A DNA stretch of 64,000 bases. Source: a virus. Location: the IMG/VR virus record IMGVR_UViG_3300021962_000031, one strand, 5' to 3'. Under the pieces are notes generated by a model. The model searched no databases. It was given only the letters and a program-made list of their open reading frames with translations, and was not told the DNA's origin. Every line of letters begins with the position of its first letter. Within the stretch, counting starts at the first letter, position 1. The position numbers were made by a program, and so were the translations under genes. Below are positions 45,532 to 57,300 of the stretch, in pieces.

Positions 45532-45722
45532 CGTCACCTTTATTGCAGTCGGGTCGGGGTTTGGCTTGGGTATTTTTGGCGGTTGTTTTGGGAGGCAGTA
45601 AAAGAGTGCAGTTGTTCGGGGGTTTGGCTCGGAAAAATTTTAGCGCAACCGGGAAAATACGGGTGATACAAACAAATAAAAAAAGAAAAGGCCCAGGAGG
45701 GGGCATCCCCTCCCAGGCCCTG
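45532..45722 (-). repeat. intergenic module A (terminator, degenerate dyad, 2 motif copies)
   Basis: TTGCAG-N10-GTTTGGCT near 45543 and GTGCAG-N10-GTTTGGCTC near 45606; GGCCCAGGAGGGG..CCCCTCCCAGGCC hairpin. Confidence 0.85.
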
Positions 45723-45726
45723 GGCA

Positions 45727-46071
45727 TCACCGCGGTGGCGCGGGCTGCGTGTTGTGGACATGAGCCAGAGCGAGGTCGGCGATCCGGAAGTTCTCCCGCA
45801 TCTCCCTCGCCCTCGTCTGGATGGCGTCCAGGCTGCGCCTGCCATCGGCGACCAGCTTCTCCAGTTCCTTGCGCTTCGCCTCCAGCTTGGCCACCTCCTC
45901 GGAGAGGGCGGCCCGTTGGCTCCGCAGGTCGGCAGCGGTCGTGATCAGCATGTCGCAGCGGATGCCCTCCTCCCAGAACGGCTTGGCCTCCCTGAGAAAG
46001 TCCTTGACATACCCGCTGGGGGTCTGATCCACCAGCCAGTCCAGATGCTTCAACTCATCGGTCTTTGTCAT
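45727..46071 (-). CDS. coiled-coil hypothetical protein
   Basis: 114 aa, GGAGG RBS. Confidence 0.65.
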   Translation of the reverse strand: MTKTDELKHLDWLVDQTPSGYVKDFLREAKPFWEEGIRCDMLITTAADLRSQRAALSEEVAKLEAKRKELEKLVADGRRSLDAIQTRAREMRENFRIADLALAHVHNTQPAPPR

Positions 46072-46252
46072 CGGTCACCTCCTCGATGGTGGTTTCGACA
46101 TCGCCCGTGTCCCACAGGGACCAGTCGCCCTGGTCAAAGGCTCGCTCAATCGCCTGATCCTTGATCTTCGCCTCATCAGTTTCGGTCGTTTCGACTTCGA
46201 CCCGGCAGTACTCCTCCGTGAACCGTTTGACCAGCACCGAATACTTTTTCAT
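46055..46252 (-). CDS. DpnD/PcfM-like small protein
   Basis: KYSVLVKR...RVEVE...DQAIERA. Confidence 0.5.
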   Translation of the reverse strand: MKKYSVLVKRFTEEYCRVEVETTETDEAKIKDQAIERAFDQGDWSLWDTGDVETTIEEVTDDKDR

Positions 46253-46504
46253 CGTCCACCTCCTCTCAACCAAAGTTGTCGTTGTAAACCCAGCCCGCCT
46301 CAACCTCTCTGATTGCCCCGCCGAAGTATTCCAACGCTTCGGCCAGGTCAGTCAGGTGCCTAGGGGCACCCCCAGAAATCCCGGAGCGGTCCAGCCACTC
46401 CTGCATCTCAGCCCGCAGGCTCCGTTCGCAGGTCGCCCTGTCCTTCCCGGCCACGATCATGCCGTGGCCGTAGATGCCTGGGATGCTGCCGATCCAGACC
46501 CTCG

Positions 46505-46909
46505 TCATTTGCCCACCCTCCACAGGTTTTCCTTGACAATACGGACGATCTCAGCCAGATGCTCGGCCTGAAGGCCACCCTCGGGGTGTTCGTGGTCGAG
46601 GAACTCACAGGGGAAACTGACGAAGTCCTCAAAAGAACCCTCATCGTAGTCACCCTTGACCCAGCCCATCCCCTCGTTGGTCAGGCTGATCCAGTTCGTG
46701 CGATCCTCCGACCACACATAGACCACCATCGTCATCCCGCCCGTCTGCTCGACGGTACAGTCGATGCCCGCATCCTCCAGGGCCAGCGCGATCCCGTTGC
46801 ACTCCTGATAGTCGGCCGCTGCGGCACAGGCACAAGAGTAGCACTTGTGGGGCGTGTCCCACAGTTCGCAGGGCTGAACCGACTTGTGGAATCGTTTGGT
46901 CTCAGTCAT
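46505..46909 (-). CDS. hypothetical protein
   Basis: VEQTGGMTMV motif; GGAGG RBS. Confidence 0.6.
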   Translation of the reverse strand: MTETKRFHKSVQPCELWDTPHKCYSCACAAAADYQECNGIALALEDAGIDCTVEQTGGMTMVVYVWSEDRTNWISLTNEGMGWVKGDYDEGSFEDFVSFPCEFLDHEHPEGGLQAEHLAEIVRIVKENLWRVGK

Positions 46910-47165
46910 TGTCCACCTCCTCTTCCTCGTCGCCGTAAGGGCAGCAGTTGGTCCCCACATCGTCCCCATTGACGAAGTGTTCACTATCAGAGACCACATC
47001 CCCGAACTCAATCTGCCCAATCTGCTTGTCGGTCAGGGCGTTGGGATCGATGGCGAGAGCCATCTTCGTCGCCTCCTCCAGACTGCCTGCCTCGACCTTC
47101 AACTCCAGAGACAAATCCTGCGTCCAGGTGACGAGGATTTCAAACTGCTTTTTCTTCTTAGCCAT
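46902..47165 (-). CDS. DpnD/PcfM-like small protein
   Basis: FEILVTW...LKVEAGSLEEATKMA. Confidence 0.55.
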   Translation of the reverse strand: MAKKKKQFEILVTWTQDLSLELKVEAGSLEEATKMALAIDPNALTDKQIGQIEFGDVVSDSEHFVNGDDVGTNCCPYGDEEEEVDND

Positions 47166-47199
47166 TGCCCACCTCCTTTGTAGTGTCCGATAATCTTCC

Positions 47200-47439
47200 T
47201 TATGTTGCACTCAGCCATTCCATCGCCTTTTCGTACCGCACCAGCTGCGGATCGTTGTCCTCGCCCCATCGGGAGTTGAGCTTTTGTTCCAAGTAAAGCG
47301 CAATGTAATCCTTGACCTCTTGGATGTTCTTGAATTCGCTGCGGACCTGCTCCTTAGTCCAGCACTCCACGATGATGTCACCACCCAGTTCGTAGTACTT
47401 GTCGCACAGGTCGAAGACCTCTTCCACGAAATCCTTCAT
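47200..47439 (-). CDS. hypothetical protein
   Basis: YELGGDIIVECW motif; GGAGG RBS. Confidence 0.6.
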   Translation of the reverse strand: MKDFVEEVFDLCDKYYELGGDIIVECWTKEQVRSEFKNIQEVKDYIALYLEQKLNSRWGEDNDPQLVRYEKAMEWLSAT

Positions 47440-47714
47440 GCGTCACCTCCCGTCCACTTGTTGACCCACTCCATTGCCCCTTCCACCGAATCGACCTCGG
47501 CATAGCCGATGCATTGGCCGTTTGCGCTCTCCCATTGCTCCTGGGTGTACCACCCCACTGTCAGGTGGCCATCCTTCTCCATTGAGTCTGTCACCACGAT
47601 CACCTTGCCGTCCCACGGCAGGATGACCCCGTACAACCCGCAATGAGCCATGTACTCATCTGCGTTGGGGAACTCGGCCTTGACCCGCTGGCAAATTTCC
47701 TTGACCATCGTCAT
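47436..47714 (-). CDS. hypothetical protein
   Basis: Coupled overlaps. Confidence 0.6.
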   Translation of the reverse strand: MTMVKEICQRVKAEFPNADEYMAHCGLYGVILPWDGKVIVVTDSMEKDGHLTVGWYTQEQWESANGQCIGYAEVDSVEGAMEWVNKWTGGDA

Positions 47715-47992
47715 TGCTTGCCCTCCTGTTTCTTGAGTTGACGCTTCTCATCCTGTCGGATGGCCTTGGTTGCCTGGACGAAGAACGCCCCCTTGCAACC
47801 GATCAAGCCAACCAGCAGCCCCTCCAGACTCGCTTTCATCTCATGATTCTTGATGCTGAGAATCTCCGGCTTGCCGTAGTGGATCGTCTCCTTGTCGGAC
47901 TGATAGCGCACCTCGGCGACCACCCACCTCGTCTTGCCATCGGGCATCTGTATGCCGTGTTCTATGATCACCGCACCCTCGACCTTGCTCAT
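47711..47992 (-). CDS. hypothetical protein
   Basis: Follows the solo motif at 48013. Confidence 0.55.
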   Translation of the reverse strand: MSKVEGAVIIEHGIQMPDGKTRWVVAEVRYQSDKETIHYGKPEILSIKNHEMKASLEGLLVGLIGCKGAFFVQATKAIRQDEKRQLKKQEGKQ

Positions 47993-55750: not shown

Positions 55751-55784
55751 GTTCACCCCTCCCCGAGTGTGCGCCTTTCGCACT

Positions 55785-55945
55785 TCTCACCCTAATTGCA
55801 GTTTCCAAGCGGTTTGACTCAAAGAATTTCGCTGGACCTGGGACCAGTGCCGACCAGACAACGGACCATCAGGCCGACCGGGCTTGCCCGGCCGGTACGC
55901 GCAATGTACAAATAAAAAAACCGGGGAGCCGAAGCCCCCCGGCCA
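55785..55945 (-). repeat. intergenic module H
   Basis: 1 motif copy, ACCGGGC-TTGCCC-GGCCGGT, CCGGGG..CCCCGG terminator. Confidence 0.8.
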
Positions 55946-55952
55946 GGCCGAC

Positions 55953-56243
55953 CTACTCGGCCGCCTGATCCATCACCTGACCGATCAAGTCCTCGGCCAG
56001 TCCGGGGAGGTCCTTGACCCGGTCCGTGGCCGAGACCGAGACCGCCCCGATGTACTGGCCGTGGGCCAGATCGTAGTCCGGGCAACCCCAGTCCACCTTC
56101 CAGTAGGTGGCCACGCCGAAGGAATCTTCGGCCTGCCAGACATGCAGCCTGGCATCGGTCTCGCCCTCGGCCAGCCCTTGCAGCGTGTCACGCACACCAC
56201 GGAGGGCGGCCACGATCTCGGACTTGCGGATGCTGATGCTCAT
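55953..56243 (-). CDS. hypothetical protein, paralog of 54453-54737
   Basis: RLHVWQAEDSFGVATYWKVDW. Confidence 0.7.
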   Translation of the reverse strand: MSISIRKSEIVAALRGVRDTLQGLAEGETDARLHVWQAEDSFGVATYWKVDWGCPDYDLAHGQYIGAVSVSATDRVKDLPGLAEDLIGQVMDQAAE

Positions 56244-56294
56244 GTGTGAAACCCCCGAGTAAGCGTTCGCCCACACCGTGTGAGCGTTTGCGCC

Positions 56295-56505
56295 TCTCAC
56301 CCCAATTGCAGTTTCGGCGAGGTTTGGCTAAGATATTTTTTGGGGGTGTTGTTTGTGCCTAGGTATGAGTGCAGTTGGGGCGGCGTTTGGCTCACTTTTT
56401 TCGCTTGCTTTTCATTAATTTTTGACCGGCCAGGGTCGGCCGGTACACGGCCATCCCTAGGACAAATAAAAAAGGCCAGGGAGGGTTGCCCCTCCCCGGC
56501 CCTGG
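56295..56505 (-). repeat. intergenic module I
   Basis: 2 motif copies, dyad with AGGGTC spacer, terminator nearly identical to module G. Confidence 0.9.
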
Positions 56506-56517
56506 GCCTAGACCTAG

Positions 56518-56805
56518 CTATATGCCCATCGATTCCTTGACCATGTGCCAGGCAAGCATGGTTCGTTCCGTGTGCTTTCCCATCTCCCACTTGTTTGAGA
56601 GCAGACGGCCCTCCCCCTGTGGGGCCTCCTCGTTGGCGTAGACATCCATGAGGATGTGGGATGATCCCGCCTCTTCCAGGCTGACCTGGACCATGGCGAT
56701 TTCCCCGTCCATGAGACGGCCCTGTATCTCGCCCAACACATGGGCCAGGTCCTTGCGAATCTCGTGCTTCGTGTTGCGGACCATGTAGGTGTTGCATGTG
56801 TACAT
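56518..56805 (-). CDS. hypothetical protein
   Basis: Single ORF between modules J and I; GGAG RBS. Confidence 0.6.
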   Translation of the reverse strand: MYTCNTYMVRNTKHEIRKDLAHVLGEIQGRLMDGEIAMVQVSLEEAGSSHILMDVYANEEAPQGEGRLLSNKWEMGKHTERTMLAWHMVKESMGI

Positions 56806-56830
56806 GTGTGTGTCTCCCCGAGCATTATTG

Positions 56831-57300
56831 CTCACCCTAATTGCAGTTTGGCCAAGGTTTGGCTCAGGAAAATTTTTAGGGAGTTGTGCGAATATCTAGT
56901 GAGTGCAGTTGGTGGCCGGTTTGGCTCACATTTTTGCTTGCTATTTTGTAATAATTGACCGGCCCAAGAGGGCCGGTACAAGGCCGGACCAGGGCATAGG
57001 GAAGATGGGGAAGCCCTGGGGATTGATTGGTGCCTGGCTTCTCACCGTCGCCGTCTCATGGTAGAGTGCAGTTCCCGGACGGTTTGACTCACATTTTTGC
57101 TTGCTATCATAATATATCGACCGGCCTATCAAGGCCGGTACAAGCCATATATCCAGCTATCAGCGCGTTCCTGGGGCCAGGTCCTGATAGCATCCCATAA
57201 CAGCCCTGCCTGGAAAACGAAAAAAGCCGGATGGGGATTCTTCCCCACCCGGCTTGCGGTAAACAAAAAAAGCCGGGAAGGGTTTCCCCCTCCCGGCTTT
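56831..57300 (-). repeat. intergenic module J (extended: 3 motif copies, 2 dyads, tandem terminators)
   Basis: Dyads with CAAGAG and TATCAA spacers; two GCCGG..CCGGC hairpins at 57220-57300. Confidence 0.88.

Follow-up and report, generated by a model that had tools for sequence, protein, structure and literature searches.

In the T4-type phages RB49, phi1, PST and nt-1, promoter-early stem-loops (PeSLs) are repeated cassettes of a promoter and a stem-loop that occur in hyperplastic regions, mediate insertions and deletions (indels) as well as replacements, and form mini-circles (Arbiol et al. 2010, PMC2839356; Comeau et al. 2014, PMC4122927). Other phages encode sigma factors that have conserved promoters of their own, such as gp36 of phiEco32 and the corresponding system of phage 7-11 (PMC4331800), and gp28 of SPO1 belongs to the same kind (PMC13401047). 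The subject here is an array of repeated control elements in a 64,000-nucleotide stretch of viral DNA (IMG/VR record IMGVR_UViG_3300021962_000031). This stretch, in the following called the window, is the whole of what was analysed and covers 64 kb of a novel, uncultured phage of about 150 kb. Our overall reading, to which we give a probability of roughly 0.65, is that the array is a row of insulated expression units driven by a phage-encoded sigma factor, with PeSL-like seams at which genes would be turned over. The likeness to PeSLs lies in a repeated composite of a presumed promoter and a GC-rich stem-loop terminator with an AT-rich tract upstream, concentrated in a hyperplastic region before small open reading frames (ORFs) that mostly have no assigned family. 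The array does not amount to a novel type of mobile genetic system, and a megablast search with it against 50,697 phage records gave no match.

The bipartite motif GAGCCAAAC-N8-AACTGCA has 28 matches in the window at up to three mismatches, all of them on the minus strand and none outside 37.7-57.1 kb, where 0.68 would be expected by chance; none of 100 shuffles reached 28. A dyad, ACCGGCC-N6-GGCCGGT, has ten matches at up to two mismatches between 48.6 and 57.1 kb (0.31 expected), and terminator-like sites number 43 against 15.9 expected, among them about 13 minus-strand sites with a long GC hairpin and a U-run. A scan for sigma-70 promoters gave eight sites, with 5.9 expected, and none of these lies in the elements on the coding strand. 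Within a unit the order is terminator, dyad (in the layout GTACCGGCC-N6-GGCCGGTC), zero to two distal copies of the bipartite motif, one proximal copy, a leader, a Shine-Dalgarno site and one to nine ORFs. The word AGCAAGC is conserved about 15 nucleotides past the dyad, an A-rich tract precedes each box, and the tandem copies are spaced at a constant 62-64 bp. Distal copies end in AACTGCACTC, proximal ones in AACTGCAAT[TA][AG]GGGTGAG, and the predicted 5' end of the leader forms a hairpin that is followed by a CA-rich tract.

An earlier reading, made from the sequence alone, had described ten shared elements in this order, with a degenerate dyad in the element at 45.5 kb and with a cargo that shrinks towards 57 kb. 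All ten are real, given motif counts far above expectation and an order that every one of them follows, and the ten starts given for them fall 11-12 nucleotides below the proximal-copy ends that we find at 45544, 48416, 50871, 52399, 54028, 54802, 55273, 55797, 56307 and 56842. The feature map likewise has the cargo declining from about eight or nine ORFs per unit to one. The array nevertheless reaches further in both directions than was thought then, to an empty unit at 57.14 kb and to solo proximal copies down to 37.7 kb. There are six such solo copies inside operons (49918, 48040, 43542, 42978, 41241 and 37726), each overlapping the stop codon of the upstream ORF. As an observation in its own right, the solo copies between 37699 and 49920 double as stop codons, the TAA in CTGCAATAA terminating four ORFs and the TGA in TGAGCC another two.

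IMG/VR contains many relatives of the phage as judged by the terminase, which sorts them into classes of about 91%, 75-78%, 66-70% and 61% identity; their GC content ranges from 34 to 64%. Four close relatives were used, L011 and L120 with 92-94% nucleotide identity to the window, and L121 and L119, which align in blocks of 75-94%; all four have the same boxes as the window. Further away are G002 (L110-L111; 145 kb, 97% complete, terminase 91% identical), G003 (terminase 75%) and the low-GC relative G005 (141.8 kb, terminase 61%). The same architecture is found at the same place in three diverged lineages, and the boxes are specific for each lineage, being GAGCCAAAC in the window, GAGACAAT in G002 and GAAAAAG in G003. 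G002 has 31 plus-strand copies of GAGACAAT-N12-[TG]GCAC, about 30 of them on the transcribed strand at 39.1-52.5 kb and one, degenerate, at 54.5 kb. Elsewhere in the 145 kb there are only four weak matches (two mismatches), on the other strand, and it is for this genome that the restriction of the motif to the array region was established. G002 also has four dyads with AGCAAG after each, and in at least eight places between 40895 and 52507 an ORF ends exactly on the TGA of TGAGACAAT, a compact fusion of promoter box and stop codon.

The series in G003 is regular, with a terminator, the dyad, AGCAAGC, GAAAAAG-N13-TGCAC(TTATCT) and then GAAAAA[GC]-N13-TGCTC(AAATAGTGAG). Counted from the first base of the box, TGCAC or a variant of it takes up positions 21-25 in the window and in both G002 and G003, and the distal and proximal classes are distinct in all three. 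G005 carries 32 copies on one strand of TTGAATAAT-N13-CGAATAAT, which can be read as a near-canonical TTGAAT-N18-AATAAT promoter, with an AT-rich palindrome upstream. Orthologous elements of the window and L121 share 94-98% identity, against 75-94% in the neighbouring alignment blocks. Within 29 orthologous motif pairs, the substitutions per site amount to 0.019 in box 1, 0.000 in box 2, 0.047 in the N8 spacer and 0.032-0.037 in the flanks.

In a promoter copy, as we read it, an A-rich tract is followed by the -35-like box tGAGCCAAAC, which a spacer of constant length but free sequence separates from a -10-like TGCA(A/C)T. Since every full unit sits after a strong terminator, it needs a promoter of its own, and the bipartite motif is the only conserved promoter-like sequence there. 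Two blocks with a fixed-length spacer of free sequence and an A-rich tract upstream are the signature of recognition by a polymerase or a sigma factor, which suggests that the bipartite boxes are promoters. If +1 is placed seven nucleotides past the -10-like hexamer (TGCAAT, GGCACT or TGCTCA), the window, G002 and G003 all have it on the G of GAG, and a stable hairpin begins at this predicted start or no more than three nucleotides from it in 7 of 16 leaders in the window, 14 of 19 in G002 and 8 of 10 in G003. The stems of these leader hairpins differ in sequence among the three, and their position suggests a stabiliser of the 5' end that is followed by the CA-rich tract and the ribosome site. 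In all three lineages the part of the leader that runs from this hairpin to the ribosome site contains CA-rich or (CA)n tracts (for instance at 54019-53972 in the window and at 9553-9510 in L117 of G003), which may be unstructured spacers that enhance translation.

The reading of each unit as an insulated terminator-operator-promoter expression unit, which was also the sequence-only reading, is suggested by these features and fits everything that we have seen; the elements lie between strong terminators and ORFs, are better conserved than the genes around them and recur in the three lineages. Signals at the RNA level on one long transcript, acting in processing, antitermination or translation, would make sense of the solo copies inside operons that overlap stop codons, and of the conserved hairpins in the leaders. 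Such signals are nonetheless hard to reconcile with a strong terminator before each full unit, and the boxes show neither pairing potential nor covariation, have the fixed-length free-sequence spacer that is typical of protein-DNA recognition, and gave no Rfam match, so that we find an explanation at the RNA level highly improbable.

Binding sites for a regulator that blocks or modulates transcription deserve a little more thought. The stoperators bound by gp71 of mycobacteriophage L5, short asymmetric repressor sites that keep one orientation across the genome of a temperate phage, are distributed in a way similar to the array motif, and the approximately 28 copies in the array are also asymmetric and in one orientation, many of them in very short intergenic spaces or overlapping stop codons. 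The array sites are, on the other hand, confined to one region (in G002), bipartite and at least 24 bp long, and neither a repressor nor an integrase or other sign of lysogeny was seen in the window. The full units would still need a promoter after their strong terminators while having no sigma-70 site in the elements on the coding strand, and the two-block geometry, the A-rich tract upstream and the hairpin at a fixed distance downstream speak for a start of transcription. We consider it very unlikely that the boxes are stoperator-like sites. A homologue of L5 gp82 is encoded at 39580-39999 (minus strand; PF25735, E 1e-24; 65% identical in G002), where the conserved part begins that adjoins the variable array on its downstream side.

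Three other ways to read the promoter sequences were tried and set aside. A sigma-54 reading fails on the GG/GC spacing, which would put the -24 element in the non-conserved N8. A promoter for a T7-type single-subunit polymerase was judged unlikely for a motif that extends over some 32 bp and contains a free 8-bp spacer, and the window encodes no polymerase of this type. A sigma-70 promoter made of the TTGACA-like right arm of the dyad and AAAAAT has -10 candidates that are inconsistent across units and lineages.

At the head of the array lies the gene of a divergent sigma-like protein (57773-58882, minus strand), which is 369 amino acids long as listed, with a real start that may be the ATG at 58810, where there is a GGAAAGG ribosome site. 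A putative host-type (sigma-70-like) promoter, TTGATT-N17-GATATT, precedes it at 58897-58925 on the minus strand; it is a match to the consensus only, is conserved in L121 and is found in G003 as TTGACT-N17-TTTACT. The array motif was searched for 5' of the gene and is absent there, and a bidirectional intrinsic terminator (57736-57761) follows the gene. The protein has only seven relatives among 1.84 billion representative proteins, and a profile search of loci with the sigma-like alignment yielded no confirmed locus. An AlphaFold2 (AF2) model made from the eight sequences has a mean predicted local distance difference test score (pLDDT) of 64. In a wide search with VIA-align, residues 88-248 of the model match sigma domain 2 of SigW (Z 8.0, 91 residues), BldN (7.9), SigC (7.8), CnrH (7.4) and sigmaE (7.2), with 78-95 residues aligned across the domain 2 matches, and residues 280-352 match region 4 of sigmaE bound to -35 DNA (Z 6.1, 65 of 69 residues). 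VIA-align calls Z scores below 8 middling for helical proteins, and because of this the argument rests on the consistency of the list, which is dominated by sigma domain 2 (Z 7-8) and region 4 (Z 5-6), and on the correct order of the two domains. In a feature search of the ESM Atlas the named neighbours are all clusters of sigma-70 or extracytoplasmic function (ECF) sigma factors, with scores of 0.94-0.95.

We find it quite likely that the 369-residue protein is a divergent ECF-like sigma factor with an N-terminal extension. Its modelled fold resembles sigma domain 2 and domain 4, and no match to the profiles Sigma70_r2, Sigma70_r4 or Sigma70_ECF was obtained, which would make it a member of a sigma family that Pfam misses. 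The first minus-strand gene upstream of it (59031-59348) encodes 105 amino acids and is 60% identical in G002; its pattern WTER...REIA...V...RLGL may resemble the N-terminal DNA-binding domain of GcrA, but the protein has no match in Pfam.

Homologues of the sigma-like protein are present at the same position in every high-GC lineage. They form three clades, the window with L121 (69% identical), G002 with L104 and L108 (47-67%), and G003 (23-25% identical to the rest), and these clades match the three types of box. In the low-GC relatives, which have the near-canonical host-type promoters, no sigma-like gene was detected within 10 kb of the terminase gene. The protein has diverged considerably, with 22-32% identity among the three clades for terminases that are 75-91% identical, and between the window and G002 the sigma-like protein is 29-32% identical, the terminase 91% and the canonical sigma factor that the phage also encodes (10578-11561) 62%. 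The array promoters are most likely read by the host core RNA polymerase together with the phage ECF-like sigma factor. This link of the array promoters to the gene at their head is an addition of ours, missing from the finding as it was put from sequence alone.

The promoters could instead be served by a sigma factor of the host, primary or alternative, with the sigma-like protein acting on other genes or having another function. If one more base is counted, the upstream box becomes a -35-like TTGAGC, TTGAGA or TTGAAA with a 16-bp spacer, which is the normal geometry of the sigma-70 family. In the low-GC relatives, near-canonical host-type promoters stand at the same place. Anti-restriction genes, one of which is in the array, are also usually transcribed at once by the host polymerase, as is known for gene 0.3 of T7. 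None of the -10-like hexamers TGCAAT, GGCACT and TGCTCA, however, has at position 2 the A that primary sigma factors require, and the boxes differ among phages that share 91% identity in the terminase and presumably infect related hosts, in a way that tracks the clades of the sigma-like protein. We therefore hold host-read promoters to be unlikely, and keep to a phage sigma factor as the reader of the array.

The dyad and the AGCAAGC word lie in DNA that would not be transcribed, between the terminator and the first promoter. The sequence of the dyad half-sites is kept, with no compensatory changes, and is conserved across lineages that have different boxes, and the low-GC relatives have an AT-rich counterpart. 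Placement, half-site conservation and conservation across lineages together fit the binding site of a conserved dimeric regulator, and dyad and AGCAAGC are probably such a site. A LexA-type winged-helix protein that lacks the protease domain is encoded just downstream of the array (35365-35682, minus strand; PF01726, E 2.2e-10), has a 60% identical orthologue in G002, and may be a candidate for the protein that binds the dyad.

The sequence-only reading had also likened the array to an integron, in which case the dyad would be the recombination site of a cassette system. A palindrome that is conserved between cassettes of variable gene content and order would agree with this. The cassettes of integrons, however, are promoterless, carry attC and share one common promoter, whereas the array units have promoters, as we read them, and a terminator of their own. 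No integrase was found among the approximately 70 window proteins scanned with Pfam or PHROGs, and no intI tyrosine recombinase either. The dyad keeps a fixed, operator-like place upstream of the promoters in all lineages including the AT-rich ones, and none of four indels seen between close relatives breaks at the dyad, the readable junction being inside a terminator hairpin. The integron analogy is thus not supported, an integron-like system being the least probable of the explanations considered here and close to negligible, and PeSLs are the better match.

The genes of the array nonetheless turn over at a high rate, if the comparison with G002 and G003 is a guide. No alignment with G002 is possible over the 18 kb from the sigma-like gene to about 40 kb, while the syntenic flanks are 67-83% identical, and of the 37 genes at 57.7-39.9 kb about ten have a homologue in G002 and six in G003. 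Gene order differs between the window and G002, where the blocks 53484/51336 and 50831/49851 are swapped, and the small gene 51336-51124 has three different positions in three lineages. Empty units exist in the window and in G003. The only gene of the array that is conserved in all lineages, at about 50% identity, is that of the GP88 family.

Four indels in near-identical relatives make up the sample that we could examine for breakpoints. L121 lacks the 130-residue ORF 57697-57305 and one terminator, with the junction inside the terminator hairpin, a 73-bp piece stops precisely at the foot of the terminator at 55459, and L011 has an extra small ORF directly before the terminator at 51119. The fourth is an extra ORF of about 95 amino acids between the ArdA and DUF3085 genes (11651-11951 in L011, 794-1094 in L120) that the window lacks. 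Three of the four thus abut a terminator hairpin and none the dyad, in a sample of just four. Indels that abut terminators, few shared genes and a changed gene order together support a turnover at the control elements, mainly at the terminators. What had been proposed of cassettes being gained, lost and shuffled is consequently supported, whereas an integron-like mechanism at the dyad is not, and the idea of mobility has survived the comparison of relatives, in which order differs and content is mostly unshared.

Indels and replacements at the motifs may be a further likeness to PeSLs, to judge by the small sample of four, yet there are clear differences. PeSL promoters match the host sigma-70 consensus, which the array promoters, with their -10-like TGCA(A/C)T and the box GAGCCAAAC, do not. 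PeSLs are compact, with promoter and stem-loop interleaved, and the array units measure 160-470 bp and add the palindrome with AGCAAGC, tandem promoters with a 62-bp period, a leader hairpin and a promoter whose boxes follow the sigma-like gene of the phage. Nor is this phage a relative of T4, and the mini-circles of PeSLs have been shown experimentally.

Several results weigh against our reading. The sigma-like protein has no match in Pfam or PHROGs, and none of eight homologues was placed in a Pfam family even at E values of up to 5. A sequence profile search of the PDB returned nothing, Foldseek found no match in the PDB to the whole model at E 0.001 or better, and an hhalign comparison with the canonical sigma factor of the phage was not significant, the aligned part being region 4 in both. 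The assignment as a sigma factor depends on a model of medium confidence, with a pLDDT of 64, an alignment of eight rows and Z scores of at most 8, and the co-variation of sigma factor and promoter is that of three independent clades only. With TTGAGC, a 16-bp spacer and TGCAAT, a host sigma factor may still be what reads the promoters, and an anti-restriction gene that has to wait for a phage sigma factor would come on later than such genes usually do. What is said here of promoter activity, start sites and timing is inference, and the distal copies may be real tandem promoters or something else. As to the seams, the fourth indel lies within an operon, away from any element, and there is no signal of recent gene conversion among the elements of the genome, orthologues being 94-98% and paralogues 74-84% identical.

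The units can be followed from the sigma-like gene downwards, all on the minus strand. A stretch at 57224-57697 holds the 130-residue ORF (57305-57697) and two tandem terminators (57300-57269 and 57255-57224). Behind it comes the empty unit 0 (57067-57139), with a dyad at 57139-57120, the AGCAAGC word and a distal copy at 57090-57067, but without an ORF. The control element of unit 1 (56842-56977) has a dyad, a distal copy at 56927-56904 and a proximal one at 56865-56842, before a cargo ORF of 95 amino acids (56805-56518). From unit 2 onwards each element begins with a terminator. That of unit 2 (56307-56503) has its dyad at 56444-56425, a distal copy at 56393-56370 and a proximal one at 56330-56307, with the cargo ORF at 56243-55953. 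Unit 3 (55797-55944; dyad 55896-55877, proximal copy 55820-55797) is without a distal copy and carries the ORF 55750-55538. In unit 4 (55273-55459) the dyad is at 55400-55381, the distal copy at 55358-55335 and the proximal one at 55296-55273, followed by the ORF 55227-55006. Unit 5 (54802-54996; dyad 54938-54919, distal copy 54887-54864, proximal copy 54825-54802) has an ORF (54737-54453) that is a paralogue of the cargo of unit 2, with 43% identity.

The cargo is larger in the units that follow. Unit 6 (54028-54185), with its dyad at 54135-54116, a distal copy at 54104-54081 and a proximal one at 54051-54028, has about five ORFs at 53971-52599. The element of unit 7 (52399-52595) has a dyad at 52536-52517 and copies at 52485-52462 (distal) and 52422-52399 (proximal), and it precedes the gene of the anti-restriction protein ArdA (51796-52341; Pfam PF07275, E 3.9e-26) and a DUF3085 gene (51396-51788; PF11284, E 4.5e-13), after which come a terminator (51389-51365) and the small ORF 51336-51124. 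Unit 8 (50871-51119) has a dyad at 51057-51038, two distal copies (51020-50997 and 50956-50933) and a proximal one (50894-50871), and carries the GP88-family gene (49917-50831; PF17338, E 4.7e-12), whose TGA stop lies within the solo proximal copy 49918-49895. For these three genes Pfam agrees with the identities that had been given from sequence alone, and most of the other cargo of the array is without a Pfam family. Unit 9 (48416-48646), with its dyad at 48600-48581, distal copies at 48565-48542 and 48501-48478 and a proximal one at 48439-48416, has about eight or nine ORFs down to 45727, with the solo copy 48040-48017 among them. In unit 10 (45544-45721) the degenerate dyad is followed by a distal copy at 45630-45607 and a proximal one at 45567-45544. 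Four more solo proximal copies stand further down, at 43542-43519, 42978-42955, 41241-41218 and 37726-37703, without terminator or dyad, and a small protein encoded in the unit behind the last of them (37195-37470, minus strand) has a SWIM zinc-finger match at E 3e-04.

The rest of the window contains genes for a terminase, a ribonucleotide reductase, a C5 methyltransferase and the canonical sigma factor, and one tRNA, the latter being all that an Rfam scan of the window gave. Genes from position 1 to about 59 kb are on the minus strand, and the gene of the large terminase subunit (61390-63579) is on the opposite one. Directly 5' of this gene and overlapping it is a gene for an ERCC4-domain nuclease (60972-61469, plus strand; Pfam E 1.4e-05). 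In another relative, L092 (terminase 76%), positions 1-167 at the end of the contig consist of at least six perfect tandem copies of a 20-bp unit, GGGCAAGGGGACTGGAATCA, which may be a genome end or an assembly break.

Like the known phage sigma systems, the array would depend on a host-transcribed sigma gene whose product redirects the host core polymerase to conserved promoters that are specific for the phage. It differs in that the regulon would consist of about 20 kb of accessory and anti-defence genes behind about 28 promoters and not of middle or late genes, in that the sigma factor has no regions that Pfam can detect, and in that sister lineages carry different pairs of sigma factor and promoter. 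The layout also recalls that of the Streptomyces phage phiC31, the early region of which is reportedly divided by near-identical non-consensus early promoters, inverted repeats acting as operators, and terminators. Many non-consensus promoters, conserved inverted repeats and terminators that divide the region into units are thus common to both, but there is no sequence relation between them. PhiC31 is temperate, its inverted repeats bind the phage repressor, and we know of no dedicated sigma gene for its early promoters.

We suggest that the minus strand from 57.3 to 37.7 kb is a hyper-variable early or delayed-early region, laid out as a row of expression units. Host sigma-70 would make the phage sigma factor, which would then switch on the array. 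In each unit the terminator would insulate from the unit upstream, the 20-bp palindrome with AGCAAGC would bind a dimeric regulator, and one to three tandem bipartite promoters with a period of 62 bp would be read by the core polymerase with the phage sigma factor. The resulting leader would carry a stabilising 5' hairpin, a CA-rich tract and a Shine-Dalgarno site before one to nine small genes, that of ArdA among them. The control elements, and chiefly the GC-rich terminator hairpins, would also serve as seams for gain, loss and movement of genes by homologous or illegitimate recombination, in the manner of PeSLs.

We hypothesize further, tentatively and at odds that we would put slightly below even, that the sigma-like proteins are an unrecognised and fast-evolving family of phage sigma factors with at least three sigma-promoter pairs that differ in apparent specificity among otherwise close relatives, each controlling about 15-20 kb of an exchangeable library of accessory and anti-defence genes. 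The sigma factor and its approximately 30 promoters would then have to switch specificity together, and the palindrome, possibly with the LexA-type protein, would shut the library off later.

For an abundant group of uncultured phages the array would provide a transcription programme that can be tested, leading from the host polymerase by way of a phage sigma factor to a gene library that contains ArdA. It would add a family of sigma factors that profile databases have missed, and several natural pairs of sigma factor and promoter, with about 30 promoter examples each, could be used to study how sigma specificity evolves and as candidate parts for orthogonal expression. The idea behind PeSLs, that repeated cassettes insulate genes and at the same time serve as seams for their exchange, would thereby be extended beyond T4-type phages and beyond promoters of the host type.

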